A DNA stretch of 64,000 nt from Candidatus Hermodarchaeota archaeon. GTDB taxonomy: Archaea; Asgardarchaeota; Thorarchaeia; Thorarchaeales; Thorarchaeaceae. This document shows, piece after piece, positions 37,730 through 63,746 of this stretch. The stretch is from contig JBHLLF010000004.1 in the NCBI GenBank assembly GCA_048885865.1, positions 89,505-153,504 on the forward strand, in the 5' to 3' direction. A model generated the notes under the pieces. The model did no database searches. It was not told the DNA's origin and was given only the letters and a program-made list of their open reading frames with translations. Position numbers and translations under genes: made by a program. Position 1 is the first letter of the stretch. Each line of letters begins with the position of its first letter.

Positions 37730-38653
37730 TCATCCAAGCAAGAAGGGTAGTATCGGCACCACCGGGAGAAGGAGAAGGGTCCCTATTGTAACCGCCGTTG
37801 CTGCTGATTCTGTGTCCAGCTTTAGACCACCAGCGAAGACTACAGTAAACACTGCAGGTGGCATGAGCGCCTCAATGATAACGACCTTCGTCGCCAAATC
37901 TGAGAGGGAAAGAAGGAGAAGCAGAATACCAATCATGATTGGAACAATCAATTGCCGGACTGCTGCCACTTCCAGACCGCCTATTACATCAACCTTGGAG
38001 AATCGTGTGCCAATGCCAAGTCCAACAGTGACTAACGAGAGGTAGGTTGTGATGATTCCGTTGAATGAGAGGAGGGAAACGACTTCTGACGGCAATGTAA
38101 CTCCGACAAGCAATAGCAGAATCACGAGCAGGACAGCGATGAATGGAGGGAACTTTAGCCATTGTTCTGCCATGCTCCTCCAATTGGTACCAGTATCACT
38201 ATATCTCGAACCAATCATCGATCCGAAGCTGACTAGGAGAAGCATCTGTGTCAGCGAGAACATGATAACAAATGGCACAGCCTGTTCCCCAATGAATAGA
38301 ATTGCCAATGGGAGAGGGATGAACAGAGCATTTTGAAATGTGGAGCAGAGCAGCAGAACCCCTTTTCTCCTGTTCTCAATTGTGCTGTTTCTGAGCCGAA
38401 TATACATGATTAGCGTGCCAGAGAGATGCACAATCAATGCAGCCAAGAGGACCAGAGGAATTTCAACCAAGGTTTCTAGAGAAGAGGTGAGTAGGGAGTA
38501 AATGACAAGAATGGGTACCAGTAGGTTCACAAGAAGCGCTATCAGGTATTTGTTTACCTCTTGCCCCCGACCTGAAATCTTGGCGATGGCATAGCCTATG
38601 ACAATCGAACCATAGAAAGAGCCCAAGTTCACTAGAAGGTCGATAACCTGCAA
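37730..38653 (-). CDS. AEC (auxin efflux/malate permease) family transporter
   Basis: LVP.LV, FQNALFIPLPL, PPFIA, RQLIVP, MPPA. Confidence 0.88.
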   Translation of the reverse strand: MQVIDLLVNLGSFYGSIVIGYAIAKISGRGQEVNKYLIALLVNLLVPILVIYSLLTSSLETLVEIPLVLLAALIVHLSGTLIMYIRLRNSTIENRRKGVLLLCSTFQNALFIPLPLAILFIGEQAVPFVIMFSLTQMLLLVSFGSMIGSRYSDTGTNWRSMAEQWLKFPPFIAVLLVILLLLVGVTLPSEVVSLLSFNGIITTYLSLVTVGLGIGTRFSKVDVIGGLEVAAVRQLIVPIMIGILLLLLSLSDLATKVVIIEALMPPAVFTVVFAGGLKLDTESAATAVTIGTLLLLPVVPILPFLLG

Positions 38654-38683
38654 CTATTTTCACCCATCAGATGATTCCTGTTT

Positions 38684-40459
38684 CTAGAGTCCCAACCTCT
38701 CTAGGGTTTCCGTAGTAGGTGCTCCTGATTCTCGGTCCCATCCTCTATATTCATAGTAGTCGCTTAGTTGAATCTCCATGTCAGGCACAAAATCATCTGT
38801 GGCATAATCCGGCAATGGCTTCAATAGCGGTGCTGGAAGTCGGTCATCCTGGGGCTTGAGTCCACACTTGAGATTGAACAGGCGTTTCATTGTGACTGCC
38901 CGAGTACCTATCAACAGGACATCCTCAGTAGTTATTGTCAGCCCCGTCGCCTTGCTCACAAGTTCAAGAATTGTTTCAAATGGGACCTGCGCGAAGTGAC
39001 ACATCATTATAGAGTCAAAGAAGGCTCTGAAGTCTTGTGCACGTGCGGCTGTACTTCCTTTACCCTCGTTGTCCAATCGATCACCGGAATTGATACCAAT
39101 CTCGCGCACTTCCACACCCATGTCGACGCTGTACATGTCACCCTCTAGGTGAGTTGCACCGCGTGAGGCTGTTGCATATACTGTGGCCATTCCTCCAAAT
39201 GCTCTCGGGTCATGGTTTGGTACCTCTTGGCCCTTAACATGAATGACCAATTCAGATGCATCGTGGTTCTTCGCGAACCGTACTGAGCCCTCAGCCAACT
39301 CATCTCCAACGCCTGACCGTGCTGCAATCGCATGAACAAGCTTGATTGCCTTATCCGGATCCCCCCATTTCAGACCAAGATCCAGTTTGCCAAGGTCACA
39401 GAGATGTGTTGCGAATGCAATTGTACTACCGCAACTAATGGTGTCCAGTCCGTACTGGTTGCATAGATTGTTGATGACTGACACCTTCTTGAGGTCAGAA
39501 ACCATCAGATTGGACCCAAATGCCGCAATTGTCTGGAACTCAGGTCCTGCTACCTTTTCGAGACCGTGCTGTGGCAAGGTAATCACTCGCCCGCAAGCAA
39601 TAGGACACGAATAGCAGGCTTTTCTGCCAGTCAGGAACTCTTTCATCGCTGTAGAAGTCAATGAATCGTATTCAAACTCAGTTTCCTGGAAATACTTGAT
39701 GGGCATGTCATTGAACATCATCCCGACTTCAACGTACATAGATGTGCCTGAATCACGAAGATGATGCATAACTTCGCCTAGAATCTTTGATGATTCTCTG
39801 GCGAGACTCGTGAATCCCTCAGGATCAGCCACTTGCACTCTCTTCGAGCCTGCAATTGTGATTGCTTTCAATTTCTTCGAACCCATCACTGCCCCCAATC
39901 CACATCTAGCTGCAGCTCTCTCATCCGTCAAGATGGCAGCGAATTTGACGAGATTCTCTCCTGCAGGGCCTATACAGGCTACACGAACGCGTCCGAGTTT
40001 CTTCTTCAGAGCCTTCTGAACTTCATCCGTCTTCATGCCCCATAATTCTTCGGCGGGGGCAATCTCAGCTTCACCTTCATTGATGTGAACAACAACCGGT
40101 TCGTCAGATTTCCCCTTGATGAGGATTCCATCAAAGCCAGAGAACTTCAGATTCGCACCGAAATGTCCACCAACATGTGCTTCACCCCAGATGCCAGTCA
40201 AAGGGGATTTCCCACAGACTACAAGCCGGCCGGTGCTTGGAGCCAGGGTGCCTGTCAGAGGACCAGTCATAAACAATAGCATATTCTCTGAACCTAAAGG
40301 GTCAACAGAAGGGTCCATGATATCATGCAGGAGCTTGCTTGCATAGCCACTGCCACCGATGAATTTTGAGGCAATCTGCTCATCGATGGGAAGACGGGAT
40401 GTCGTCTTTTCTGTAAGGTCAACTACAAGTATTTGACCCATATACCCATGCATGTCCAT
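38684..40459 (-). CDS. aor: Tungsten-containing aldehyde:ferredoxin oxidoreductase family protein
   Basis: GYMGQIL.VDL, KSPLTG, CIGPAGE, GLGAVMGSKKLKA, CYSCPIAC, GPEF, GLDTIS, RGATH. Confidence 0.93.
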   Translation of the reverse strand: MDMHGYMGQILVVDLTEKTTSRLPIDEQIASKFIGGSGYASKLLHDIMDPSVDPLGSENMLLFMTGPLTGTLAPSTGRLVVCGKSPLTGIWGEAHVGGHFGANLKFSGFDGILIKGKSDEPVVVHINEGEAEIAPAEELWGMKTDEVQKALKKKLGRVRVACIGPAGENLVKFAAILTDERAAARCGLGAVMGSKKLKAITIAGSKRVQVADPEGFTSLARESSKILGEVMHHLRDSGTSMYVEVGMMFNDMPIKYFQETEFEYDSLTSTAMKEFLTGRKACYSCPIACGRVITLPQHGLEKVAGPEFQTIAAFGSNLMVSDLKKVSVINNLCNQYGLDTISCGSTIAFATHLCDLGKLDLGLKWGDPDKAIKLVHAIAARSGVGDELAEGSVRFAKNHDASELVIHVKGQEVPNHDPRAFGGMATVYATASRGATHLEGDMYSVDMGVEVREIGINSGDRLDNEGKGSTAARAQDFRAFFDSIMMCHFAQVPFETILELVSKATGLTITTEDVLLIGTRAVTMKRLFNLKCGLKPQDDRLPAPLLKPLPDYATDDFVPDMEIQLSDYYEYRGWDRESGAPTTETLERLGL

Positions 40460-40464
40460 CTCTC

Positions 40465-41103
40465 CTAGAAATCCCTCATGATTTCCCAAAGGTCCTCCTC
40501 GTCTTCGACAACATCCTCTGGAAGAGGAATGGGCTCACCAGCCCTCAGTGCCAGCAGATAGATCCGGCAGGTTCTCTCGAGAAGGATAGCATTGTCAAGG
40601 GCCTTTCTGATATTGTTCCCGCAAGTTACTGCACCATGATTAGCTATGAGCACCGCACTTCTCCGATCCATGGCTTCGACGACGTTCTTAGCCAAGTCCT
40701 TTGTACCTGGCATTGCATAGGATGTGACGCGAATCTCACCACCTAGCTTTGGAACTACCTCATCCAGTATTGGAGGAAGAGGCCTTTGGAGAACAGCTAG
40801 GGCTGTGGCATAGACGCTGTGAGAATGGACGACTGCATTTGCATCATCTCGCTGTTTATATATCTCAAGATGCGTGGGGGTTTCGATACTAGCATTACGA
40901 TCAGCTTCAATGACATCACCCTCCATATTTGCCACAACTATATCATCCATCGTCATCTTGGCGTAGGGAACTGAGCTTGGCGTTATTACAACATGCTCAT
41001 CATTCACTCGGATGCTTGCATTGCCAGCTGAGATGATGACTAGGCCCTCTCTGATCATCTCACCACAAGCCGCTAGAAGTTCCTTTTTTTCCTTCTCATA
41101 CAT
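40465..41103 (-). CDS. Class II aldolase (L-fuculose-phosphate aldolase-like)
   Basis: GNASIR, ITPS, SIETPTH, HSHS, NHG. Confidence 0.92.
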   Translation of the reverse strand: MYEKEKKELLAACGEMIREGLVIISAGNASIRVNDEHVVITPSSVPYAKMTMDDIVVANMEGDVIEADRNASIETPTHLEIYKQRDDANAVVHSHSVYATALAVLQRPLPPILDEVVPKLGGEIRVTSYAMPGTKDLAKNVVEAMDRRSAVLIANHGAVTCGNNIRKALDNAILLERTCRIYLLALRAGEPIPLPEDVVEDEEDLWEIMRDF

Positions 41104-42608
41104 TATTCGTCACTTCCTAGAGACCATATCTCTTTCCAGCGGGAGTAGTAGAAATTATACTCAGACGCCCGCTCATCAGGTATCAGTGTTGGTTGCCAAG
41201 ATACCATTGCTTCTGAGGCCTTCCTGAGGTCAGGATACCAGCCTGCTCCAACTGCAGCACAGATGGCGGCTCCGACGAGGCTGCCCTCGAACTCTATAGG
41301 ACTCATCACTGGCTTGCCTATGGCATTACTAAGAATCTGTCGCCAGACTTGCGACCTTGAGATACCACCAATTGCCTTGACAACTGGCGGATTCTTATAT
41401 TCCTGCAACTGCTCAATGTTTCCCCTTACTGCAAACGCGATGTTCTCAAGAACTGCATGAATCAGACTAGCAGAATCGAGAGGTTTGACTTGGGGCAATG
41501 CTGGCTGCGGAAAATGAAGTCGAGCCATGGGTATGTCAGCCATTCTAGTTGAGTCCATGATTCTGGGCCCTAAACCAGCAAAAACCTCGTTGCTTCCTGG
41601 GGGAATGTTCTTGAGCATCTCTGGCAAACTTTCAAAGGTCTTCTCTCTGCATCTATCAGGATTTTCGGAGAGCTCGCACAAAAGAGCAATGACCCATTCG
41701 ATATATGCCCCAGTGAGCATTGCATTACTCTCTAATGTCCACATGCCTGGAACCATATGACAAGAAGACCATAGTGTCTGTTCAGAGGAGCAGACATGGC
41801 TGTCCAATGTGAGCATCACAGGAGTTGTACTGCCTGCAATTACTGTAATCTCTCCAGGACTAGCTTGCGCGGCAAGGAGAGCACAATGTGTGTCAGAACC
41901 ACCTTGGATGACAGGCAGACCCTCAGGAAGCCCTGAATCCTTGGCTGCATTGGGCGTGATACTTCCAACAGCCTCACCAGCTTTTCTTAGGCTGGGAAGA
42001 ATGCCTTTGTCAATACCCAACGCTGAGAGTATCTCTTCACTCCAATTCTGAGCCTTAATGTCGTAGCATCCAGTAGCACTGGCTGAGGCTGGCTCTGTGA
42101 CATACTCACTGCTGAGCCTAAAAGTAATCCAGTCGTTGATTGGAAGAACGTGCGCCACAGCCTCACGAATCTCAGGCTCCTCCTCCTCAAACCAAGCCAT
42201 TCTCGCAGGAGTAAACATCATGGGAGGCCAGCAACCTGTGACCTCCAAAAACTTCTTTCCTAGAGCTTCTTCGACTACATACTGGGACATGGCGCCCCGT
42301 GCATCTATGTTTGGACCACTGTAAAGCTCCTTTCCATCAGCATCTAAGAATACTATTCCATGACGCTGACTCGTGGTGGCCACGCTTTCAATCTTTGAAG
42401 AAGGCAGTCCAGAAGCCTTCACTGCCTCCTTGGTCACTGTGCATATCAAATCCCAAAAGTGAGAGGGGTCGAACTCTTTTGCTATCTCAAGAAACTCAGG
42501 GGTTTCATATCCCCACGTCCTCCTTCCAAGACCTAAGACCTCTCCTCGTTTTCCAACAATCATACAACGAACGCCAGTCGTACCAGCATCTATCGCAGCA
42601 ACAGGCAC
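41103..42608 (-). CDS. FGGY family carbohydrate kinase (LsrK/xylulokinase-like)
   Basis: IDAGTTGVR, TTSQRHGIVFLD, NIDARG, GGSDT, GGISRS. Confidence 0.9.
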   Translation of the reverse strand: MPVAAIDAGTTGVRCMIVGKRGEVLGLGRRTWGYETPEFLEIAKEFDPSHFWDLICTVTKEAVKASGLPSSKIESVATTSQRHGIVFLDADGKELYSGPNIDARGAMSQYVVEEALGKKFLEVTGCWPPMMFTPARMAWFEEEEPEIREAVAHVLPINDWITFRLSSEYVTEPASASATGCYDIKAQNWSEEILSALGIDKGILPSLRKAGEAVGSITPNAAKDSGLPEGLPVIQGGSDTHCALLAAQASPGEITVIAGSTTPVMLTLDSHVCSSEQTLWSSCHMVPGMWTLESNAMLTGAYIEWVIALLCELSENPDRCREKTFESLPEMLKNIPPGSNEVFAGLGPRIMDSTRMADIPMARLHFPQPALPQVKPLDSASLIHAVLENIAFAVRGNIEQLQEYKNPPVVKAIGGISRSQVWRQILSNAIGKPVMSPIEFEGSLVGAAICAAVGAGWYPDLRKASEAMVSWQPTLIPDERASEYNFYYSRWKEIWSLGSDE

Positions 42609-42609
42609 T

Positions 42610-43626
42610 CTAGGTCACCCCCTTCTTCAGGACTTCAGGATTAAGCACGTTCTCTGGACGATCACCCTTGAGGATTGCTCTAATGTCCCTTGCAATCATC
42701 ATGGACTGTCGCTCAATCGTGTCAACAGTATTGCCTCCAATATGCGGAGTCACAATAACATTTTCCAATTCCAGAAACTCATTATCACAGTCCACTGGTT
42801 CCATTGAGAATACATCGAGACCAGCACCTGCAATTGATCCTGACTCCAATGCTTGACGAAGTGCATACTCATCTGTGATTGATGCACGCGCAGTGTTTAT
42901 GAAGATCGCACTCTTCTTCATCATTCCAAACTGCTCGCCTCCAAGCATTCCCTTGGTTTCATCTGTCGGCGGGCAGTGGACTGTCACTATGTCTGATTCC
43001 CTCAGAAGCTCCTCCAACGACACTTGCTTTGCATCCACTTCATTCAGTCTTTCTTGAGGCACATAGGGATCAAAGACTATAATCTCGACACCAAAGGCTT
43101 GCAGCCGCTTTGCAACTTCGTGTCCGATTTTTCCTAGACCAATGATTCCAACAGTCCTTCCATGCAGTTCGAAACCTGTTGTGGTCATGTACATGCGAGC
43201 AAAGTCAGAATAGTCATCAACCATGAAGTCATTCTTCAGTAGACGGTCCGCTGTCACGATTCGACGTGCTTGACTTAACATCAGAGTGATGGTCAGCTCG
43301 GCTACCGCAATTGTGTTTCTGCCTGGTGCTCCAATCACTGGTATGTTCTTGGCTGTAGCTGCAGAGATCGAAACATTGTTGGGATTGTCTCTGGCGGAAG
43401 CAATGATACTCAGATTTGTACCATCAATAACCTCCTCCTTCACCTCGTCACCCTCAACAATGACAATATCGTAGCCACCATCTTTGATGACGGGAAGGAG
43501 CTTGTCCCCAAGGTAAAGCTTGCCGGTTTCAAGCCAACTCTCATGTTGAACCTCTAGTCCTGCATCCTCAAGCAGTTTCAACCCCGACTCTGAGAAGGGC
43601 GCGGTGATTAGCACCTTCATGGTCAT
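42610..43626 (-). CDS. D-isomer-specific 2-hydroxyacid dehydrogenase
   Basis: PGRNTIAVAE, GIIGLGKIG, INTARA, LDVFSMEP, TPHIGG. Confidence 0.92.
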   Translation of the reverse strand: MTMKVLITAPFSESGLKLLEDAGLEVQHESWLETGKLYLGDKLLPVIKDGGYDIVIVEGDEVKEEVIDGTNLSIIASARDNPNNVSISAATAKNIPVIGAPGRNTIAVAELTITLMLSQARRIVTADRLLKNDFMVDDYSDFARMYMTTTGFELHGRTVGIIGLGKIGHEVAKRLQAFGVEIIVFDPYVPQERLNEVDAKQVSLEELLRESDIVTVHCPPTDETKGMLGGEQFGMMKKSAIFINTARASITDEYALRQALESGSIAGAGLDVFSMEPVDCDNEFLELENVIVTPHIGGNTVDTIERQSMMIARDIRAILKGDRPENVLNPEVLKKGVT

Positions 43627-43662
43627 GGTCCCCTAGATATCCAGCAGAGAGAGCGGTCTTAG

Positions 43663-43995
43663 CTACAGCATCAGCTTCTGTAGCTTGAGAAGGTCTGGAA
43701 CCTCTCCCTTGGTCTTGAGCTTCCCAGCTTGATAGGCAGCCATAGGACTCTCACTCTTGTCCATAATCTTGAGAAAGACTATCGAGTCCATAGTCACAGT
43801 CATCTCAGCTTCTACGGTTCCCTCGGCAAGCTCCACTAGCTCGGCATCGCCTATCTTCATGTACATCTGAGCATCAATGTCAGGGAAGATGAACTGGAGA
43901 GTCTTATGGAAATCCCTGAAACGCCGCTTAATCTTGGGATCTTCAAACCGCGTTCCCAGTTCTTTCAATTGCGCCAAAATCTCATCCTTAGTCAT
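43663..43995 (-). CDS. SCP2 sterol/lipid-binding domain protein
   Basis: SPMAAYQAGKLKTKG...LLKLQKL typical SCP2 C-terminus. Confidence 0.88.
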   Translation of the reverse strand: MTKDEILAQLKELGTRFEDPKIKRRFRDFHKTLQFIFPDIDAQMYMKIGDAELVELAEGTVEAEMTVTMDSIVFLKIMDKSESPMAAYQAGKLKTKGEVPDLLKLQKLML

Positions 43996-49766: not shown

Positions 49767-51206
49767 CTATAGACCTATTCTTTCTTTGACACCTTTTCCA
49801 TAGTCGGGATCAGCCTTTGTGAAATGCTCAACCATGCGCTTTTGGATTTCCTTTGGAACAGTACTTAGCGGTTCAGCAATGTTGTCCATCAACCTTCCCT
49901 GCTCTTCAGCAGACATGAGACGAAACAGGTTTCCTGGCTGTACATAGTCATCATCGACCCCTCTAGGCTGGTCATATCTATCAGCATCGCCAGAGATTTT
50001 CAGAGGTGGCTCACGATAGGCAGGGTCAGCCTTGGGCCCTCCGAAGCTGTCAGGTTCGTAGTTATACCCCGGACCTCCGTCCATATACCTCATGTATCCA
50101 TCTCGCTGATTAGAGGCAACTTCAGCATTCTTTGCTTGATTCACAGGTAGTTGCTGGTGATTTACCCCCAGTCTGTATCTATGAGCATCAGCATATGAGA
50201 AGATTCTAGCTTGAAGCATTTTATCTGGCGAAAAGGATATACCAGGCACAATATTCGAAGGGGCAAAGGCTGCTTGCTCGATGTCTGTGAAGTAATTCGC
50301 TGGATTCTTGTTGAGTTCCATAACTCCTACGTCAATTAGAGGATAGTCCTCATGAGGCCACACCTTTGTAAGGTCGAAGGGATTCCAGCGGTAGTCAACA
50401 GCCTCCTCTTCTGGCATGATCTGCACTTTGAAGTTCCACTTGGGATAATCTCCTTGTTCAATCCTGTCAAAAAGTTCTCTTGTAGCCCAATCAGGATCTT
50501 CTGCAGTCAGTCTAGCTGCTTCCTCTGCATAGAAGTTCTCTATGCCTTGAGCAGTCTTGAAATGGAACTTCACCCAGAATCTTTCATCCTTAGCGTTGAT
50601 GAAGCTATAAGTATGACTTCCATAGCCGTTGACATGGGCATATCCCTTTGGTGTTCCTCGATCTGAGAATAGGATTGTTACTTGATGCAATGATTCTGGC
50701 ACTAATGACCAAAAGTCCCATTGCATCTCATTAGACCTCAGATTCGTTTGCGGGACTCGTTTTTGCGTATGAATGAAGTCAGGGAACTTCAGTGGATCGC
50801 GAATGAAGAAAACAGGAGTATTATTCCCCACAAGATCCCAGTTGCCCTCCTCAGTATAGAACTTGACCGCAAATCCACGAACGTCACGAACAGTATCTGC
50901 TGAACCTTTTTCTCCTGCCACTGTTGAGAAACGGACCACAAGGTCAGTCTTCTTGCCAACTTTCGAGAACATCTTTGCCTTGGTGTATTTGGTGATGTCA
51001 TGTGTGACAGTAAAAGTGCCAAAAGCACCTGCACCTTTGGCATGTACCACTCGCTCTGGTATACGTTCTCGATTGAAGTGCGCTAGCTTCTCAAGAAGAT
51101 GAAAGTCCTGCAATAATACTGGTCCTCTCTCTCCTGCGGTGAGAGTATTTTGATTATCTGCAACAGGAATTCCTGATGCAGTTGTCATTCTCTTTTCCTT
51201 TGGCAT
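49767..51206 (-). CDS. katA: Monofunctional small-subunit heme catalase
   Basis: [40 protein letters not shown]. Confidence 0.97.
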
Positions 51207-51247
51207 ATGATTACACGTCCCTTTGGCATTCCATCATATCATGTAAA

Positions 51248-51279
51248 TAGTAATAGTTACTAACTAGTAATGGTTATAT
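51248..51279. promoter_or_regulatory. Per/Fur-box-like overlapping palindromes between katA and perR/fur
   Basis: TAGTAA-tag-TTACTA (51248-51262), TTACTA-ac-TAGTAA (51257-51270), and a second TAGTAAtggTTAtat copy. Confidence 0.65.
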
Positions 51280-51344
51280 TTAACCGTTTTGTCGTATAGC
51301 TAGCAATTAAAAGAAGAGTTCGGAAGTTACAGAGTGAAACAAGT

Positions 51345-51767
51345 ATGACACTGACCGAAGACCAACTCATCTCGATTTTGAGGGATAGTGGGCATAAGGT
51401 CACACCACAGCGACTTGCAATCTGCAATTACATTCTCTCGAGTAGAGACCACCCAACTGCTGAACAAATTCATTCTGAGGTATTGAAGAAACACCCTGCA
51501 ATCAGCTTGAATACGATTTATCAAACAATGGACATGCTCAAGAGGTTGAATCTTATACAAGAATTGACCCTGAATAGCAATGCTTCTAGATTCGATCCAA
51601 ACACATCAATTCATATCAATGTCATTTGTCAGAAATGCAGCAAGATTCGAGATTTCGAATCAGAGAATATCACGAAACTGTGGTCACAAATAGTGAGTGA
51701 AATTGATTCAAGCCCAGTCGGACAGCGTCTTGATGTCTATGTAATCTGCGACGACTGCAAGAAATGA
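51345..51767 (+). CDS. Fur family regulator (PerR-like)
   Basis: KVTPQRLAI, HPTAEQI, SLNTIY, RFD, two CxxC motifs; divergent from catalase. Confidence 0.92.
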   Translation: MTLTEDQLISILRDSGHKVTPQRLAICNYILSSRDHPTAEQIHSEVLKKHPAISLNTIYQTMDMLKRLNLIQELTLNSNASRFDPNTSIHINVICQKCSKIRDFESENITKLWSQIVSEIDSSPVGQRLDVYVICDDCKK

Positions 51768-55573: not shown

Positions 55574-56479
55574 ATGGCCATTGAAAACTTGGACAGAATG
55601 GAGCGTGCGAATCTCTCACTCATTGGATTATCGGTTGGAGATGCTTTTGGAGAGAGTTTCTTTGACTCTCGCCATCAATTAGTGAATCGGATAGCTGAAC
55701 GCAAGAGTCCTCCAGGTAGATGGCCCTTTACTGATGACACGATGATGGCCCTATCGATAGTTTCTGTTCTAAAGGAATACAAGGAGATTAATCAAGACGC
55801 CCTAGCGGCAAGCTTTGCGAGAAACTACGATCCAATTCGGGGCTATGGCCTCGCAATGCATCACGCACTGCCGAGGATGGCTGCTGGAGAGAGATGGTCC
55901 ACCGTGGCATCCGACCTGTTTGGAGGAGAGGGCTCTTTCGGGAATGGAGCGTCAATGCGAGTACCACCAGTGGGCGGATATTTCGCTGATGACATTCTTG
56001 AGGTAAGAAGGAATGCAGCCTTGTCCGCAGAAGTCACGCATAAACATCCTGAAGCTGCAGCAGGTGCGATAGCAGTTGGACTAGCTGCTGCTTGGGCTGC
56101 CAGAATGAGAAATACCGAAGTCCCAACACCTAGCGAATTCATTGAAAAAGTAGTGAAGGGAGTACCTGATAGTATGACCAGGAGAGGAATTCTGAAAGCA
56201 CAGGAAGTTCCTCCTCTTGCTACACCTTCTGATGCTGCCGCCATTCTGGGGTGCGGGCAACAAATTACGACTCAGGACACTGTCCCATTTGTCATTTGGT
56301 GCGCTGCACATTATTTGGAAGACTATGAGAATGCCCTCTGGAACACTGTAAGTGCGTTTGGGGATATGGATACGACATGTGCAATGGTTGGTGGTATTGT
56401 GGTTCTGTATACTGGAATAGAAGGCATACCTAAACAATGGCTGGCTCAGCGAGAAACCCTTCCAGATCTGCCAATCTAG
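55574..56479 (+). CDS. ADP-ribosylglycohydrolase family protein (DraG/ARH-like)
   Basis: GDAFG, TDDT, RGYG, SFGNGASMR, VTH.HP, GDMDT. Confidence 0.93.
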   Translation: MAIENLDRMERANLSLIGLSVGDAFGESFFDSRHQLVNRIAERKSPPGRWPFTDDTMMALSIVSVLKEYKEINQDALAASFARNYDPIRGYGLAMHHALPRMAAGERWSTVASDLFGGEGSFGNGASMRVPPVGGYFADDILEVRRNAALSAEVTHKHPEAAAGAIAVGLAAAWAARMRNTEVPTPSEFIEKVVKGVPDSMTRRGILKAQEVPPLATPSDAAAILGCGQQITTQDTVPFVIWCAAHYLEDYENALWNTVSAFGDMDTTCAMVGGIVVLYTGIEGIPKQWLAQRETLPDLPI

Positions 56480-57360
56480 ATGCCAAGAATGTCACTAATC
56501 GGGTCCAAAGAGATTCTATTCAGCTCAAGGCCCAGCTGTTCCTGATCAAGACCCATCGCTAGTCCGAGAATCTGAGTGACAAACATGGCTGGGAGTTCGA
56601 GGGACTCGCCATTATCATCCTTCATCCCAATCAACTGCACATCAAACTGTGTATGGCACGCTGGACAGTTGGTCACGAGAACATTGGCTCGGCCTTCTTT
56701 CGCCGAAATCATCTTGTCCTTCAGAACATCTGTAGCTACTTCTTCACTTGCAATCAAAAGAGGGGACCCACAGCAGTTGAGCTTTGCACCCCATGGAACG
56801 CTTTGCGCACCAGTGAGTTCAAGGAGTTCGTCTACCTTTCTAGGGAGTTCTGGATCATCAAAGCCTGCTACGTTTGATGGACGAATGAGATGACACCCGG
56901 GGTGAAATGCGATTCTGAGCCCAGTGAGGGGTTTCACAATCCTTGACTTAATGTCATCTTTCATATCATAAAGGACCTCGACAAAATGGCGTATCTTGGT
57001 CTTTCCTGTGTATTCAAGTCCCAATGTCTTCAGGGCGCCATTGACTTTCTTTCGATAGGTTTCGTCATCGTGTAGTACATGATCTGTATCCTTGAGAGAA
57101 CCAAAACAACCGTTGCAGGGAGTGACAATATCATGACCTCTGCTCTCTGCTAGAGCAATGTTCCTGCCCGACATAGAGAGCCAACTATTCTCGTCAATCG
57201 ACTTCAGGACAACCGTACCGCAACAGGATGCGCCTTCGAAGTCGATGAGCTTCACACCGAGTTCCTTGGCCACTGCACGCATCGATGCCTCATAGTTGTT
57301 GAAGCGGTTGGGGATTGCACACCCTAGGAATACTTCGTAGGTCTGGGCCATCTCACTCAC
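56476..57360 (-). CDS. hdrB: Heterodisulfide reductase subunit B
   Basis: Two CCG domains: GC, SCCG, TPCNGC, GCH, CCG, CPAC. Confidence 0.94.
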   Translation of the reverse strand: MSEMAQTYEVFLGCAIPNRFNNYEASMRAVAKELGVKLIDFEGASCCGTVVLKSIDENSWLSMSGRNIALAESRGHDIVTPCNGCFGSLKDTDHVLHDDETYRKKVNGALKTLGLEYTGKTKIRHFVEVLYDMKDDIKSRIVKPLTGLRIAFHPGCHLIRPSNVAGFDDPELPRKVDELLELTGAQSVPWGAKLNCCGSPLLIASEEVATDVLKDKMISAKEGRANVLVTNCPACHTQFDVQLIGMKDDNGESLELPAMFVTQILGLAMGLDQEQLGLELNRISLDPISDILGI

Positions 57361-57871
57361 CCTCCTCCAACTTCATTAGACCCATTTTGTCCAAGACTTT
57401 ACGTGTGTCCTCGACATTCAGCTCTGGCACGTCATCGAGCTCTAGGTCCTCACGTTCCCATTCAGTAGGTTCGTACAGTTTGCCAGTGTCATAGAGTGAC
57501 TTTCTTGCAGCGACATAACCGGGTGGTGCTATTTTCTTCTTGAATGCCATGTTCTTTAGGCCAAAGATGATGTCAGTGATATCTATGCCTTGAGGGCATC
57601 GCTCCTGACAGGTATAGCAAGTCGTGCACAACCATACCATGTCGGTTTCTAGAACTTCTTTTAATCCGAAGAGAAGCATCCGCATCAACTCGTGCACCTG
57701 TATGTTCACCTTGTCACTCACTGGACAGCCAGCACTGCACTTGGCACACTGGAAGCAGGCGGTAAGGTCCTTTCCACCAAGCAGTCCGGAAACCTCCTTT
57801 GTGAACTCTGCATCTAGAGCCTTGAACTTCTTACCCTCAAAAGACTTGAACTGGCCCCACGACTCTGTCAT
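57353..57871 (-). CDS. hdrC: Heterodisulfide reductase subunit C
   Basis: CFQCAKCSAGCP and WLCTTCYTCQERCP. Confidence 0.94.
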   Translation of the reverse strand: MTESWGQFKSFEGKKFKALDAEFTKEVSGLLGGKDLTACFQCAKCSAGCPVSDKVNIQVHELMRMLLFGLKEVLETDMVWLCTTCYTCQERCPQGIDITDIIFGLKNMAFKKKIAPPGYVAARKSLYDTGKLYEPTEWEREDLELDDVPELNVEDTRKVLDKMGLMKLEEGE

Positions 57872-57874
57872 ATC

Positions 57875-60800
57875 TTATCGCCTCCTCGGTCTTAGCGGGC
57901 TTGGGCCCAGTTTATCCGCGACCTCAGTCAGCTTCTTGACAGTTTCCGCCCAGATTGGGCCTTCGCTGGCACTTATTTGGGTGAACTGGAGCCGCTCAGG
58001 CTCGAGACCTGCTTTCTCAATAATCTTCCTTGCGATGGCGAACCTTCGCTCAAAGGACACGTTCCCATCTACATAGTGACAGTCTCCGAAGTGGCAGCCC
58101 GAAACCCACACCATGTCAGCACCCAATCTGAAAGCCTGCAGCATGTGAGTCACGCTGACTCTCCCTGTACACATCACACGGATGTCACGGACCGTGGTCG
58201 GCTGTTGGAACCTGGATACACCTGCGCTGTCAGCACCTGCATACGAACACCAATTACAGAGAATCGTCAATATCCTCGACTCAGTGGCGGGCATGTCCTC
58301 CAAAGCTGAACGAACCTGAGCCAGTATTTGGTCGTCAGTGAAATGCTTCATGGTGATGGCTCCAGCGGGGCATCCAGCAGCGCATTTACCGCATCCTGCA
58401 CAGAGAACCGGATTGGAAACCGCGTAGTCAGAGCCGCCGTCACCGGGCACGACCTCGATGGCATTGTAAGCACAGTTTATCTCACACGTACCACAACCAA
58501 CGCAGACCTCAGGATCTACAACTGACACTATGGCCTCAGCCTTCCGTATGCCGCTGGCCAGAGGGATTAGTGCTCTTGATGCAGCACCTCGACCCTGAGC
58601 TACGGATTCAGCAATTGTCTTTGGAGCGGTAGCAGTCCCAGCGACATAAACACCGTCTGTCTGGAAATCTACTGGCCTGAGCTTTGGATGTGCCTCCATG
58701 AAGAACCCAGACATATTGAGTGGGACCTTGAATAGCTCCGAGATTTCCTTGTTCTTCTCCCGTGGAATCATAGCAGTTGAGAGAACGACATGGTCAACAT
58801 CAAATGTTACCTCGGCACCGAAGACTTGGTCCATGACCTCTACACGCAGCGCCTTGTCCTTGCCTTTCTTCACGCTGGGTGGACTAGCCTGATCAAACCT
58901 GAGAAATACAACCCCCTTCTCTCGAGCCTCTCTGTATTTGTCCTCATCCTCATAGGACACCCTGATGTCACGATAGATATGGAAGACCCTGGAGTTGGGA
59001 TACTTGTCAAGCAGTTCCAGTGTGTGCTCTAGGGCGATTGTACAGCATATTCCGGAACACCAAGTCCGACCACCTTCGAGGGACTCCTCCTCGCGAGAAC
59101 CGGCACAATGAATTACCGCAAAGGTCTGACCGTCCTCGATTCCTTTACCGTCTGCGACCTTGTGATTGAACTCGACCTCTGTGATAACATTCTCAAGCTT
59201 CTTCAGGCCGTAAAGACCCTTTTCAGTGAGTTCAGTGGCACCCGTGGCAACAATGACAACTCCGACCTTGACCTCTTGCTTCTCCTTTCCTGTCTTTATC
59301 GTGATATCAAAATCACCAATTGAGCCTTTAGCATCAATCACCTCGGAGTTCATCATCAACCGGATGTTCGGATTGCCTGTGACTGCCGCCTCGAACTCCT
59401 TCACTATCTCTGCGCTTGGTCTGTGATCAAAATTGACTGTTCGAAGCTCATTCAGAAAGCCTCCGACCTTGTCCTCCTTCTCGACAAGAACCACCTTGAA
59501 TCCCTTCTGAGCGATAAGGTCGGCTGCAGCCATTCCGGATACTCCGGCACCAATGACCAGTACAGTTGGTTCAATCTGGGTGACTGCCTCTTCCTGAGCC
59601 TCCAGAAGTCTTGCTCGTGCCACGGACATTCGTACAAGGTCGTTTGCCTTTGATGTTGCCTCATCCTTTGCAGCCTGATGCACCCATGAACAGTGTTCTC
59701 TGATGTTTGCGAGCTCAAACAGATACTTGTTGAGGCCGGCTTCTTCGATTGTGGCACGGAACAGAGGTTCATGCGTTCGGGGCGTGCAAGAGGCGACGAC
59801 CAAGCGGTTTAGGTTATGCTCCTTGATAGCTTCCTTGATTACATCTTGAGCGTCTGATGAACATGAGTAGAGAAGGTTCTCTGAATAGACTACACCGGGG
59901 AGAGTACTTGCGTACTCTGTGACTTCTGCAACATCAACAGTTCCAGCGATGTTGATTCCACACGAGCAAATAATCACGCCAATCCGCGGCTCTGCAGCTA
60001 TGAGTTCCAAGTCTGCTTCAGTAAGGGCTTCGCTCTCTGATGCTTCGGGCAAGACAATATCCATTGCAGCCATTGCCGCTGCTGCGCTCCCCTGAGCTAC
60101 AGAGTCAGGGATGTCCTTGGGAAAATTGCATGCTCCACACATGTGCACACCAGGAACGCCTGTCTGAACCGAATCGACTCCATCTCCCTTACCTTTGATG
60201 AACCCATACTGATCTAGTTCAATCCCCAGCTTCTCCATTAATTCTGAATTCTTGTTTGGCACCATAGCAGGACAAAGGACCACAAGGTCGTAACTGTCCT
60301 TCAAGATCTCGTGTCCCTTTGCATCACTATGTCGGACGATTAGGTTCTGGGTTTCAGGCACTTCAGTGATGTAGCTAGGCAGGCCCTTGACATAGTTGAT
60401 CCCGTACTCTGTTTCTCCTCTAACCACAAACTCTTCGAAACCCTTTCCAAAAGCTCTCATGTCATTGTAGAGGATGTCAATATGGACCTCAGGAGTATGC
60501 TCTTTGGTGATGATCGCTTCTTTGGTAGCATACGTACAACATATTCTCGAGCAATATGCGCAGTGGTTTACATCTCGGCTACCCACGCATTGAATAAACG
60601 CAATATGATGAGGCTCCTTTCCGTCGGAGGGACGCATAACAATCCCTTTTGTGGGACCACTGGCTGAGACCATTCGTTCATACTCAAGTGCGGTCACAAC
60701 ATTTGGAAATCGACCATACCCATACTCCGCGACTGAGGATGCATCAAGTAGGTCATACCCCGTGGCAACAATTATCGACCCTGCGTTGATATTCACAATC

Positions 60801-61333
60801 TCATCAGGAATCTCAAAATCAATAGCCTCTGCCTTGCAGGTCTTAACACAGGTCATGCACTCAATACAGTTCTCCATATCAATAGTAGCAATATTAGGCA
60901 CGGCCTGAGGAAACGGAATGTAGGCCGCCTTTCTCATCTTCAGACCCATGTCATACTCGTTTCTCACTTCGATAGGACAGACACGCTCGCAGTCACCGCA
61001 CCCAGTGCACTTGTCCAAGTCCACCCTTCTTGTGTGCTTCATAACCTTGACCATGAAATTACCAGGCTCTCCAGAAACATCAGTGACTTCTGAATAAGCT
61101 AATAGCTCAATATTGCGATGACGAGAGCAATCAACCATCCATGGACCTTGAATGCACATTGAACAGTCAAGTGTGGGGAATGTCTTGTCCAGTTGGGACA
61201 TATGACCCCCAATTGAGGGATTCTTCTCGACCATGTAGACTTGGACGCCCATTTCAGCGAGATCAAGTGCAGCGCGCATTCCTGCAATACCCGCGCCGAT
61301 GATGACAACTGGCTTTGTAGCAGACTCGGCCAT
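57875..61333 (-). CDS. hdrA: Tandem HdrA-HdrA fused to C-terminal MvhD (hydrogenase Fe-S delta) domain
   Basis: KTFPTLDCSMC, two FAD sites, ASCTPRTH; C-terminal CNWCSYAGAD, RVMCTGRV, GCHFGDCHY, ISASEG (MvhD). Confidence 0.94.
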   Translation of the reverse strand: MAESATKPVVIIGAGIAGMRAALDLAEMGVQVYMVEKNPSIGGHMSQLDKTFPTLDCSMCIQGPWMVDCSRHRNIELLAYSEVTDVSGEPGNFMVKVMKHTRRVDLDKCTGCGDCERVCPIEVRNEYDMGLKMRKAAYIPFPQAVPNIATIDMENCIECMTCVKTCKAEAIDFEIPDEIVNINAGSIIVATGYDLLDASSVAEYGYGRFPNVVTALEYERMVSASGPTKGIVMRPSDGKEPHHIAFIQCVGSRDVNHCAYCSRICCTYATKEAIITKEHTPEVHIDILYNDMRAFGKGFEEFVVRGETEYGINYVKGLPSYITEVPETQNLIVRHSDAKGHEILKDSYDLVVLCPAMVPNKNSELMEKLGIELDQYGFIKGKGDGVDSVQTGVPGVHMCGACNFPKDIPDSVAQGSAAAAMAAMDIVLPEASESEALTEADLELIAAEPRIGVIICSCGINIAGTVDVAEVTEYASTLPGVVYSENLLYSCSSDAQDVIKEAIKEHNLNRLVVASCTPRTHEPLFRATIEEAGLNKYLFELANIREHCSWVHQAAKDEATSKANDLVRMSVARARLLEAQEEAVTQIEPTVLVIGAGVSGMAAADLIAQKGFKVVLVEKEDKVGGFLNELRTVNFDHRPSAEIVKEFEAAVTGNPNIRLMMNSEVIDAKGSIGDFDITIKTGKEKQEVKVGVVIVATGATELTEKGLYGLKKLENVITEVEFNHKVADGKGIEDGQTFAVIHCAGSREEESLEGGRTWCSGICCTIALEHTLELLDKYPNSRVFHIYRDIRVSYEDEDKYREAREKGVVFLRFDQASPPSVKKGKDKALRVEVMDQVFGAEVTFDVDHVVLSTAMIPREKNKEISELFKVPLNMSGFFMEAHPKLRPVDFQTDGVYVAGTATAPKTIAESVAQGRGAASRALIPLASGIRKAEAIVSVVDPEVCVGCGTCEINCAYNAIEVVPGDGGSDYAVSNPVLCAGCGKCAAGCPAGAITMKHFTDDQILAQVRSALEDMPATESRILTILCNWCSYAGADSAGVSRFQQPTTVRDIRVMCTGRVSVTHMLQAFRLGADMVWVSGCHFGDCHYVDGNVSFERRFAIARKIIEKAGLEPERLQFTQISASEGPIWAETVKKLTEVADKLGPSPLRPRRR

Positions 61334-61433
61334 TCGTTAGTCCACTCCGACGTAACAATGCGCATCGGTTCAATGGCATGATAAAATGTTTGTTATCGGA
61401 CGATGAAATCAGACCCATAGGTTTTGGGCCAGG

Positions 61434-61658
61434 CTATTCGAGTAGTCCTATGATTTGTGGACTCTTTGGAATGAGGGCTCTCTGAATCCTGATAGCACGC
61501 ACTGGGCATTGAAACTCACAAGAGGTGCAATCAATGCATCTTTTCGGATTTACAAGCTCAGCCTTCCTTTTACTCTGGCTGAACCCCCAGACTCCTCTTG
61601 GACACACCTTCAAGCAGTCTTGGCAACCGGAACAGGCCTCATAGTCATAGATTATCAT
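61434..61658 (-). CDS. 2x[4Fe-4S] ferredoxin (HgcB-like position, no C-terminal vicinal Cys)
   Basis: CSGCQDCLKVCP and CIDCTSCEFQCP; ATG at 61658 after GAGGTGA. Confidence 0.88.
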   Translation of the reverse strand: MIIYDYEACSGCQDCLKVCPRGVWGFSQSKRKAELVNPKRCIDCTSCEFQCPVRAIRIQRALIPKSPQIIGLLE

Positions 61659-61668
61659 GTCGTTCACC

Positions 61669-62664
61669 TCAAATGATGCCCCAAGGATAGTAGAATCCCA
61701 GGAAAAAGATAACAATCAACGACCCAATACCCGCGATTATATCACGAATCATCTGGTCCTCTCCCAACTGAGGAGTAGAGCCTCCCCAATTGAATCCCAC
61801 AAACAACGACAGTCCGATTATCGCGAGACCACTTGTATCTAGCCATGCCCATTCGGTGAGTACAGTCAGGTATGTGTCTGAGAGAAACGCGACTATTAAC
61901 CAAATGATCTTCCATACGAATAGCGCGATTACTCCAGTTATCGCACCCCTCACATAGCCCGAGGAAGTTGGCATCTTCGGATCGACCATGGCCATAAACG
62001 TGCCCAGAATCCATGCTCCAAAAATGAACAGTAAAAGGTTCGGGATCCAATAGCTCGACCAAGACAGGAAAATTCCACCCATAAAACCCAGTATCCAGAA
62101 AATGGGCGTCATCATCAGAAACATTGTAGTTTCAAAGATGAGATGAGCAAGATTGCACTCCATTCGCTTGTGGAAACCGAACTTGACAATGCTCTGTTCC
62201 AGCGACTTTTTGTTTTCATTTTCAATGAATTCAGCAACATCTGCAATTTCCACGGGTCCAAAGACAGCATGCCACCCGTTATCGGATAAAACAGCCTTTG
62301 AAACTGAGCTTGCCGCTAGTTGAGGGAGGATGAGATTTCTATGAGAAACAATACTCTCTAGTTTTGTTGATCTGATTGCAGCTAGTACCGAGTCAGTGTT
62401 CACATGACTGCCTCTGCTTCCACACCACACATTAATCCCATGACCATCAACAACGAGGAGATGACATCTCAAGTTCTGCTTCTCAATCTCCTCAGTCACT
62501 CTGAACACAGTCATATAATAGTCAGTCGTGACAAGCACTGGTGCATCTTGGTCCGCTCCATTGAATGAGAGCAAACCTTGGGCAGACTTGAGAGACAATG
62601 CAGGCCACATTAATTGTGAGCCCAGCAGACATGCGTAGTACTTCCAACCTTTCCTCATATTCAT
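61669..62664 (-). CDS. HgcA-like corrinoid-binding membrane protein (divergent cap helix)
   Basis: APVLVTTDY, LLVVDGHGINVWCGS, SHRNLILPQLAA, FGPV corrinoid domain, then multiple TM helices ending FNWGGSTP (cf. HgcA NFTGST). Confidence 0.85.
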   Translation of the reverse strand: MNMRKGWKYYACLLGSQLMWPALSLKSAQGLLSFNGADQDAPVLVTTDYYMTVFRVTEEIEKQNLRCHLLVVDGHGINVWCGSRGSHVNTDSVLAAIRSTKLESIVSHRNLILPQLAASSVSKAVLSDNGWHAVFGPVEIADVAEFIENENKKSLEQSIVKFGFHKRMECNLAHLIFETTMFLMMTPIFWILGFMGGIFLSWSSYWIPNLLLFIFGAWILGTFMAMVDPKMPTSSGYVRGAITGVIALFVWKIIWLIVAFLSDTYLTVLTEWAWLDTSGLAIIGLSLFVGFNWGGSTPQLGEDQMIRDIIAGIGSLIVIFFLGFYYPWGII

Positions 62665-63311
62665 GCCTCCGCCACAAAGAGCTCATAGAGGCCGCCCATT
62701 AGATTCACTCGATATTTGGGAGTTAAACCAACAGATTTCATAGCAGCAGGAATGTTGTGATGAGGATGTGATTCAACATCACTCAATCGCGAAACCAATC
62801 TGAAGCTTAATCTCCGAATCAGTCCAAAGAAAGCCCCTATTAGCCTACTTTCTGGAATGCCCTCTCCCCCAACAACCACTTGGCCCCCAGGAACAGCAAC
62901 CCTCGCTGCTTCTTTTAGGAAGACCTTCAGCTGGCTTGTTTTCAATTCGCTAACCATTAGTGTGCTCACCACTGCATCAAAGGCTTTGTCATCAAACTCA
63001 AGCGAAGTGGCATCTCCATATCTGAAATCAATGCGTCTTGCCAGGTTATGTTTTTTGAGGCGCTCTTCAGCAACCTCAAGCATCTCCTTGTTGGTGTCTA
63101 CTCCGATTCCCCGAATACCTCGCCTTCCAGCTTCTATGAGTAATTTCCCTGTGCCGCAGCCCACATCTAGCAGAGTGCCTTTTCTTGGCAGGAGATGCTC
63201 AATGATATAATTGCGGAGAGCTAAATCTTGCCTGAACGTGAGGAAGGATATCCATCTATCATACTGAGACACGGCTTTGTCCTCTGATAGCTTCATCAGT
63301 ATGGTGGCCAT
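62661..63311 (-). CDS. Class I SAM methyltransferase, corrinoid-protein-associated (CpaM-like)
   Basis: LMKLSE...YDR, LLDVGCGTG, FDAVVSTLMVSEL, PGG; ATGA overlap with the HgcA-like gene. Confidence 0.8.
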   Translation of the reverse strand: MATILMKLSEDKAVSQYDRWISFLTFRQDLALRNYIIEHLLPRKGTLLDVGCGTGKLLIEAGRRGIRGIGVDTNKEMLEVAEERLKKHNLARRIDFRYGDATSLEFDDKAFDAVVSTLMVSELKTSQLKVFLKEAARVAVPGGQVVVGGEGIPESRLIGAFFGLIRRLSFRLVSRLSDVESHPHHNIPAAMKSVGLTPKYRVNLMGGLYELFVAEA

Positions 63312-63377: not shown

Positions 63378-63746
63378 TCAACCCTTGACAATCATCGGTG
63401 CGACGAATGTCCACAGTCCTACCCCAAGCAATAGAAGGTAGTCCAGATCTCCCAGACTAATGTCCAATATTCTCATGCTTGATAGACTGACATATAGCAT
63501 CGATGTCACAAATGAAATGACGAGTTGGGGTCGAAGGTCAACCTTCTGATCCCGAATCTCGAAGTGCCAAAACAGTATAATTGCTGCTATTAGAACCATC
63601 ACGACACTAATGACTTGATAAGCGACATCCAATGTGGCAAATGGGGCCAGCAGCCCCTCCATGGTAGTCATAAGCGCAATTATGTAAATCGGCGTCAGTT
63701 TGCCGAGCCTGTGGATATAGCTATCTTCTGCATTGATATTTGTCAA
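63378..63746 (-). CDS. Hypothetical small membrane protein
   Basis: Four hydrophobic segments, TTG start after AGGAGG. Confidence 0.65.
   Translation of the reverse strand: MTNINAEDSYIHRLGKLTPIYIIALMTTMEGLLAPFATLDVAYQVISVVMVLIAAIILFWHFEIRDQKVDLRPQLVISFVTSMLYVSLSSMRILDISLGDLDYLLLLGVGLWTFVAPMIVKG

Follow-up and report, generated by a model that had tools for sequence, protein, structure and literature searches.

What does a membrane-anchored relative of the mercury methylation protein HgcA do when its gene lies between those for a methyltransferase dependent on S-adenosylmethionine (SAM) and a ferredoxin devoid of the extra cysteines of HgcB? HgcAB is the only known route to methylmercury; for its sister radiation, the HgcAB-like proteins, we know of no substrate. 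The question is raised by three genes, referred to here as the trio, in a 64,000-nucleotide stretch of DNA (the window) whose final 2.6 kb, where the trio sits, are the end of contig C4 in a Thorarchaeota metagenome-assembled genome (MAG) of 3.58 Mb. We propose, with moderate confidence, that the trio is a Thorarchaeota-specific, unfused version of the three-component methyl-transfer systems composed of CpaM and HgcAB-like proteins, with an acceptor that is probably not Hg(II). The three genes, all on the minus strand, and the parts of the central protein are as follows.

62661..63311, minus strand: class I SAM-dependent methyltransferase, CpaM-like; open reading frame (ORF) of 216 amino acids (aa)
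61669..62664, minus strand: HgcA-like membrane corrinoid protein, 331 aa (329 aa from the alternative start at 62658)
62215..62589, minus strand: corrinoid-binding domain of the HgcA-like protein, similar to the C-terminal domain of CFeSP, residues ~26-150, delimited by alignment to residues 318-440 of CFeSP 4djd_C
62410..62439, minus strand: cap-helix motif G76-INVWCGSRG-85, preceded by H75, with Cys81 at 62422-62424
61690..62175, minus strand: five-helix transmembrane (TM) domain, residues 164-325, with modeled helices 164-193, 198-230, 236-261, 265-296 and 302-325
61434..61658, minus strand: 2x[4Fe-4S] ferredoxin, HgcB-like minus the extra cysteines of HgcB, 74 aa counted from the ATG

The preliminary description of this DNA had reported three tightly coupled genes, and both the coordinates and the junctions were confirmed. 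The stop codon of the methyltransferase gene overlaps the start codon of the HgcA-like gene in the sequence ATGA, and only 10 nucleotides (nt; ggtgaacgac), including a GGTGA that resembles a Shine-Dalgarno (SD) sequence, separate the HgcA-like stop codon from the ATG of the ferredoxin gene. Judged from sequence, these junctions point to coupled translation of the trio. A second in-frame ATG occurs 6 nt downstream in the HgcA-like gene, and the database copy of the protein (329 aa) begins there. The ORFs are not chance reading frames, since dozens of orthologues (50-95% identity) were retrieved for every one of them and the gene order is repeated in every related contig examined.

The central protein has the architecture of canonical HgcA, a corrinoid domain with the conserved cysteine followed by a five-helix membrane domain, as seen with Pfam, NCBIfam, AlphaFold2 (AF2) and Foldseek. 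Pfam CdhD (PF03599) was matched at residues 26-142, and the AF2 model, calculated from a 52-sequence alignment with a pLDDT of 90.4, consists of a Rossmann-like domain, a short cap helix (residues 79-84) and five TM helices. In Foldseek searches with this model, the top match was the published HgcA model 9a0b_A over the full length (328 columns), followed by CFeSP large subunits with a root-mean-square deviation (rmsd) of 1.4-1.7 over ~125 columns. A sequence search of the PDB retrieved CFeSP chains only, without an experimental structure of HgcA, and aligned WC81 of the HgcA-like protein with LT of the CFeSP cap helix. The HgcA architecture assigned in the preliminary description therefore stands, but its TM bundle does not end in GGSTP as was stated there; this motif (residues 294-298) is part of the loop that links TM4 to TM5, 33 residues before the C-terminus. 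The reading of the cap helix as GINVWCGSRG was correct: the Co-ligating cysteine is present as Cys81, with GSRG in place of AAGK.

Searches of curated protein families relate all three proteins to the HgcAB-like systems, with scores well under the cut-offs. The HgcA-like protein scored higher against the HgcAB-like fusion family NF043039 (175.6 bits, cut-off 285) than against HgcA (NF040863, 142.9 bits, cut-off 275), while its match to CdhE/AcsC (NF003195, 84 bits, cut-off 306) was confined to model positions 325-448 and so did not extend to the full-length CFeSP architecture. The methyltransferase matches Pfam Methyltransf_25/11, and its best NCBIfam match by a wide margin was CpaM (NF043040), with 143.5 bits over positions 4-215 of 216 and a cut-off of 180. 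Given that a true CpaM scores 281 bits and the true HgcAB-like fusions P0044 and P0052 score 462 and 425 bits, the methyltransferase and the HgcA-like protein are relatives rather than members of these curated families. The methyltransferase belongs with the class I SAM-binding enzymes; its SAM motif LDVGCGTG and its D72 do not vary among the aligned family members.

The ferredoxin, which matches the Fer4 families of Pfam, contains two CX2CX2CX3CP motifs, CSGCQDCLKVCP and CIDCTSCEFQCP, and zero further cysteines. It had been described as a separate gene without a CMECGAC-type motif and without a C-terminal CC, which holds, the cluster cysteines being the only ones present. Its best NCBIfam match was HgcB (NF040864) with 57.3 bits, below the cut-off of 99, and the C-terminal part of the HgcAB_like family gave 55.5 bits. 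Orthologues in other Thorarchaeota contigs are 74-78 aa long and start 10-12 nt after the HgcA-like gene, and neither they nor the ferredoxin of the trio have the C-terminal cysteine pair and additional cysteine of HgcB.

To determine how general the association of the three parts is, we surveyed 80 HgcA-like loci from species-representative genomes and scored their neighbors with a hidden Markov model (HMM) of the methyltransferase alignment. A CpaM-like methyltransferase was found at 57 of 61 non-canonical loci, either fused to the HgcA-like protein (21 loci) or encoded within 600 bp on the same strand (36 loci); of the other four, one short contig gave no match and three loci gave matches that were weak or partial, two of these loci being truncated by contig ends. 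At canonical hgcA loci, no CpaM-like methyltransferase was found in the 19 loci of the survey or in two further loci. The HMM was derived from this very family and related genomes cannot count as independent, although the contrast still extends across many phyla. Together with the gene order shared by all related contigs examined, this bears out the co-conservation on which the preliminary description had made its proposal depend.

The same parts recur in several arrangements. The three-gene form occurs in the Thorarchaeota clade and in Hodarchaeales; a methyltransferase fused to the HgcA-like protein (A) with a separate ferredoxin (Fd) is found in Hodarchaeales, in bacteria and on contig C85 of the source genome; a methyltransferase gene next to an A-Fd fusion is another arrangement; and all three parts are joined in one polypeptide of 588-589 aa at four loci (L085, L100, L123 and L126). 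These triple fusions were observed in Desulfobacterales, Calditrichaceae, Caldithrix abyssi and a Spirochaetes MAG. Since methyltransferase-A, A-Fd and methyltransferase-A-Fd fusions all exist elsewhere, the three parts form one functional unit, with an association that appears obligatory; of all our results, this is the strongest. In the trio, the partner gene of CpaM type that goes with NF043039 is present, and the single polypeptide of that family is not: A and Fd are split by a stop codon and 10 nt, a split that was kept in all Thorarchaeota orthologues seen.

The trio is a Thorarchaeota-specific, unfused and divergent subfamily that falls under the curated cut-offs. Orthologues of the HgcA-like protein form ~40 clusters (55-100% identity, 304-331 aa), and all those with a named source come from Thorarchaeota or other Asgard MAGs and are labeled 'hypothetical protein'. 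Beyond a gap comes a Hodarchaeales protein (28% identity), followed by three large classes, namely canonical HgcA, HgcAB-like fusions and fusions of a methyltransferase with an HgcA-like protein (~540 aa). Clustering at 50% collapses the entire Thorarchaeota clade into one representative (510 bits), and the next match has 156 bits. Orthologues of the methyltransferase (50-94% identity) were likewise found only in Thorarchaeota and other Asgard MAGs, with a gap before CpaM-type proteins at 30-36%, so that the two proteins co-diverge, each as a tight Thorarchaeota clade followed by a drop to ~30% identity. Within the class, the trio is present in 6 of 41 species genomes (orthologues with at least 61% identity), five in the genus of the window, its own genome included, and one in another genus.

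For the part of the proteins in common with the query, a quick and a careful phylogenetic tree were calculated, with Thorarchaeota CdhE as the root. Canonical HgcA formed one clade (SH-aLRT 99 in the quick tree; 100/99 in the careful tree) with the Thorarchaeota protein outside it. The Thorarchaeota proteins formed a single clade (100/100) with a stem length of 1.19 changes per site, sister to the unfused Hodarchaeales-type proteins (94 in the quick tree; 98/89 in the careful tree), and this pair was placed within the assemblage of non-canonical fusions (80; 89/79). That the protein might nest within canonical HgcA, which the preliminary description had named as an outcome fatal to its proposal, was checked by tree and by approximately unbiased (AU) test: forcing the Thorarchaeota clade and canonical HgcA into one clade cost 17.9 log-likelihood units and was rejected (p-AU 0.007). 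Methyltransferase-fused lineages are located near the base of the rooted tree, and monophyly of all non-canonical forms was not rejected (p-AU 0.42), so that both a clade and a grade of these forms fit the data.

Conserved residues were then compared among the classes of HgcA-like proteins. A core of the corrinoid domain is invariant in all of them (P42, G76, I77, N78, W80, C81, L113, P114, Q115, L116, A118, G136 and P137), and H108, F162, R167, G295, T297 and P298, also common to all classes, are kept in the Thorarchaeota clade. The cap helix itself reads GIN[VA]WCGS[RK]GG in 37 of 37 full-length members of the clade, compared to WCAAGK in canonical HgcA and WC[GAS][AS]xGG in the fusions, one of which has WCGSVGG; at the positions occupied by GSRG, canonical HgcA has A (0.94), A (0.99), G (0.98) and K (1.00). 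Invariant residues specific to the Thorarchaeota clade are, in the corrinoid part, cap-helix G82-S83-R84 (position 84 being [RK] over the clade), Y50, H68 and N35, and, in the membrane part, eleven polar or charged residues (N171, H174, E178, T179, D228, R239, K252, D276, Q304, R307 and D308). All of them are unlike canonical HgcA, and in both fusion classes they are different or not conserved. Because the shared residues are retained and the clade has its own TM set, the pattern fits a conserved cofactor pocket combined with an altered acceptor site.

By analogy with HgcAB, a reaction scheme can be suggested in which the membrane protein would bind a cobamide with Cys81 of the cap helix as lower axial ligand. 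The 74-aa ferredoxin would pass a low-potential electron to this cobamide to give Co(I), the CpaM-like methyltransferase would use SAM to methylate Co(I) to CH3-Co(III), and the methyl group would then be handed to an acceptor with access to the cofactor from the membrane domain, where the clade has its own invariant polar and charged residues. A precedent comes from work with purified HgcAB, in which SAM gave rise to CH3-cob(III)alamin ligated by a Cys thiolate (PMC11588087). The combination of SAM methyltransferase, corrinoid carrier and ferredoxin reductant had been put forward in the preliminary description, and the fusions, which show the parts to be one unit, lend it support that falls short of proof.

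Several points weigh against this interpretation. All chemical steps of the scheme are analogies, for the trio as for the whole CpaM/HgcAB-like family. HgcAB obtains its methyl group from SAM without a separate methyltransferase (PMC11588087), which makes the loading role that we infer for the CpaM-like enzyme the least secure step, and this enzyme could alternatively act on the acceptor or in reactivation only. Furthermore, the function of the clade may have diverged from that of the fused family, given that all three proteins score under the NCBIfam cut-offs and the stem of the clade measures 1.19 changes per site. A complex prediction for the methyltransferase and the corrinoid domain (residues 20-160), made without control runs, scored 0.00 and is evidence neither way.

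Reactivation is one alternative to direct methyl transfer from SAM. Cobalamin-dependent methionine synthase (MetH) is rescued by reductive methylation with SAM and an electron, and the methyltransferase and ferredoxin of the trio could supply both ingredients. SAM and the electron would then serve only to rescue Co(II) reductively, and the main cycle would use donor and acceptor partners encoded elsewhere. SAM is costly as a stoichiometric donor, and the CdhD/CdhE pair of the Wood-Ljungdahl pathway encoded in the genome implies a methyl-corrinoid metabolism, both of which fit such a role. We nonetheless consider it improbable: no conserved donor or acceptor methyltransferase is found beside the trio, with flanks that vary outside Thorarchaeota, SAM is the stoichiometric donor in HgcAB (PMC11588087), and the triple fusions suggest a self-contained enzyme.

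A second alternative arises from the genes directly downstream, where an Hdr cluster is preceded by a promoter-like motif:

61380..61397, minus strand: promoter-like (BRE/TATA-like) motif GATAACAAACATTTTATC, 47-64 nt upstream of hdrA, not part of the trio
56476..61333, minus strand: double-HdrA/MvhD fusion (1152 aa), HdrC (172 aa) and HdrB (294 aa), with Pfam FlpD, Pyr_redox_2, Fer4 and CCG

If the trio were coupled to these proteins, electron bifurcation would feed the Co(I) electron through the 74-aa ferredoxin, or the acceptor would be a thiol in connection with the disulfide chemistry of HdrBC. Such wiring, if true, would tie a membrane corrinoid methyl transfer to heterodisulfide and low-potential electron metabolism, instead of making it a stand-alone modification enzyme, and would be an Asgard analogue of the coupling between methyl transfer and Hdr in methanogens. 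In its favor, wherever the sequence downstream of a Thorarchaeota trio is available, hdrA-mvhD-hdrC-hdrB follows directly on the same strand, with an HdrA/MvhD of 1152-1153 aa. This holds for 12 of 12 loci (the window, L015-L018, the P0019 contig, G022, G028, G034, G037, L054 and L055), among which the HgcA-like proteins are down to 56% identical.

However, the Hdr cluster (HdrA 72-100% identical) occurs in about all of the 41 Thorarchaeota genomes sampled and the trio in six, and the site has the same genes on its flanks whether the trio is there or not. Between the trio and hdrA lie 84-340 nt, compared to 0-12 nt between the genes of the trio itself; in G024, a genome with a sole hdrA orthologue, this orthologue is on another contig than the trio, which is at a contig end. 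Beside the Hodarchaeales sister and 59 other non-canonical loci no Hdr cluster was found, and a single weak HdrB-like match (L066) was on the opposite strand. In addition, a motif core AAAC(A/G)TTTTATC and a GGAGTG SD sequence before hdrA are conserved whether the trio is present or, as in five of the genomes, absent. From its sequence, the motif resembles a promoter of hdrA's own, and hdrA would thus be a separate transcription unit. Since hdrA keeps this promoter-like motif in trio-less genomes, the adjacency is probably positional, which we read as a single insertion next to a core locus, on its upstream side, with subsequent inheritance, and functional coupling to Hdr appears decidedly improbable. 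A six-gene operon of trio and Hdr genes was considered and downgraded, the Hdr genes being universal and the trio rare, with the same flanks and the hdrA motif in genomes that lack it. The motif in the window lies within a palindrome, GATAA-N8-TTATC, and the motif with its SD sequence was seen across Thorarchaeota genera (L015, L034-L037, L045-L049, L054 and L055).

The common architecture, the common Co-ligating cysteine and the use of SAM as donor by HgcAB (PMC11588087) raise the possibility that the trio methylates mercury, as a divergent HgcAB to which a methyltransferase has been added. The accepted cap-helix motifs of HgcA number six, and NVWCGSRG, which has no lysine, is not among them (PMC10087281). 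HgcB needs C73, C94 and C95 (ND132 numbering; PMC11588087), and the ferredoxin of the trio has none of the three. Tested organisms with fused relatives make no methylmercury (PMC4646819, PMC10087281). Mercury is therefore an unlikely substrate, as the protein also falls outside the canonical clade, and with HgcA and HgcB scores that are below the cut-offs, we judge a mercury methylase to be highly improbable. Scarcely credible is a membrane corrinoid enzyme of the reductive dehalogenase type, acting on halomethanes or similar electrophiles with SAM methylation as a secondary activity, for which Co(I) corrinoid and ferredoxin would be chemically sufficient and which a 2026 preprint on CCl4 dechlorination by heterologous HgcAB brings to mind (10.64898/2026.04.26.720869), but that work concerns canonical HgcAB and is not independently confirmed, and a near-obligatory fused or adjacent SAM methyltransferase would be left unexplained.

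The favored three-component methyl-transfer system has consequences beyond this locus. As three separate genes, the parts of the split trio can be expressed or omitted individually, which makes the loading of the cobamide from SAM by CpaM directly testable. The presence of a methyltransferase with nearly every non-canonical HgcA-like protein and with no canonical HgcA frames the use of SAM by HgcAB itself. There is also an annotation gap, as the HgcA-like protein is a 'hypothetical protein' and the methyltransferase carries generic labels in public records, and low-stringency HMM surveys of hgcA could miscount trio genes as potential mercury methylators, which the present evidence argues against.

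Other observations concern the surroundings of the trio and of its relatives. A hydrophobic ORF of 122 aa (63378-63746) is located 66 nt upstream of the methyltransferase gene on the same strand and is 75-93% conserved in three close relatives only; the P0019 contig has a 122-aa gene in the same position upstream of its trio. This membrane ORF was considered as a fourth member and rejected, having no Pfam match and being absent from the more distant trio loci. Downstream, a gene for an ADP-ribosylglycohydrolase (55574-56479) lies between DUF2096 and hdrB, and is not at that position in the Thorarchaeota loci L015 and L017. Elsewhere in the window (49767-51767), a full-length catalase gene (479 aa, 655 bits) is divergent from a gene for a Fur-family regulator; the genome also has Wood-Ljungdahl and Hdr genes. 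In a Hodarchaeales locus (L020:176-5739), a methyltransferase-HgcA-like fusion is divergent from genes for AOR, SCP2, a class II aldolase, an FGGY kinase (in two pieces) and a 2-hydroxyacid dehydrogenase, a gene set that matches the window at 37730-43995, ~20 kb from the trio.

Regarding novelty, the claim of a candidate new corrinoid methylation system in the preliminary description was overstated. Gilmour's 2018 work is reportedly one source for the term 'fused HgcAB'. The term was also used by Podar 2015 (PMC4646819), fused forms in Asgard archaea were treated by Lin 2023 (PMC10083202), and systems of this kind, catalogued there and as NF043039 and NF043040, are widespread. A full-text literature search for CpaM with a corrinoid found no paper, and no description of the Thorarchaeota three-gene form was found in the searchable literature. 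What is new here is the unfused Thorarchaeota variant with its GSRG cap and its own polar TM residues, which no curated model captures.

Among known proteins, the CFeSP large subunit (CdhE/AcsC) shares the C-terminal corrinoid domain with the HgcA-like protein (rmsd 1.4-1.7 over ~125 residues; sequence E 1e-9). Unlike CFeSP, however, the HgcA-like protein lacks the N-terminal [4Fe-4S] and TIM-barrel domains, has Cys in place of the cap-helix Thr and has an added membrane domain; the true CdhD/CdhE of the source genome are encoded on contig C101. HgcA/HgcB (Pseudodesulfovibrio mercurii ND132; NF040863/NF040864) are closer in plan, having a corrinoid domain with five TM helices and a cap-helix cysteine, the order of A followed by a 2x[4Fe-4S] ferredoxin, and SAM as the (likely) methyl source. 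They differ in the cap helix (WCAAGK compared to WCGSRG in the trio), in the C-terminal CC and third cysteine that the trio ferredoxin lacks, and in the dedicated SAM methyltransferase of the trio, which is absent from 21 of 21 canonical loci, and the trio is outside their clade.

A related system within the same genome is encoded on contig C85 (L003:162-2213) and consists of a 571-aa methyltransferase-HgcA-like fusion (GINVWCAARG) followed after 6 nt by a 109-aa HgcB-like ferredoxin that ends in ...SSSCCS. It has the same three parts as the trio, with a CpaM-like domain of 123-126 bits and 212 bits for HgcAB_like, but its methyltransferase is fused to the corrinoid protein, its cap helix reads NVWCAARG and it forms a separate deep branch of the tree. 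Systems of the C85 type were observed widely in Thorarchaeota (L061, L064, L065, L067 and L108; ferredoxin tails (C/S)CCG) and in an unclassified archaeal MAG (L082).

The three-gene form of Hodarchaeales (P0043 in L019, and P0124) resembles the trio in its unfused methyltransferase, corrinoid protein and 72-aa ferredoxin and in scoring below the NCBIfam cut-offs; it differs in sequence (28% identity), in the cap helix WCSAAGG and in its neighbors, which are MFS and EamA transporters with no Hdr genes nearby. The best family match for the methyltransferase and the corrinoid protein is CpaM with the HgcAB-like fusion (NF043040/NF043039), which has the same three parts in the order methyltransferase then corrinoid protein, a non-canonical cap helix without lysine (with a WCGS variant in fusion P0118) and a place on the same side of the tree. 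From these fusions the trio is set apart by A and Fd as separate genes, by scores of 175.6 against a cut-off of 285 and 143.5 against 180, and by its own cap-helix triplet, its own set of polar TM residues, its long stem and its restriction to Thorarchaeota.

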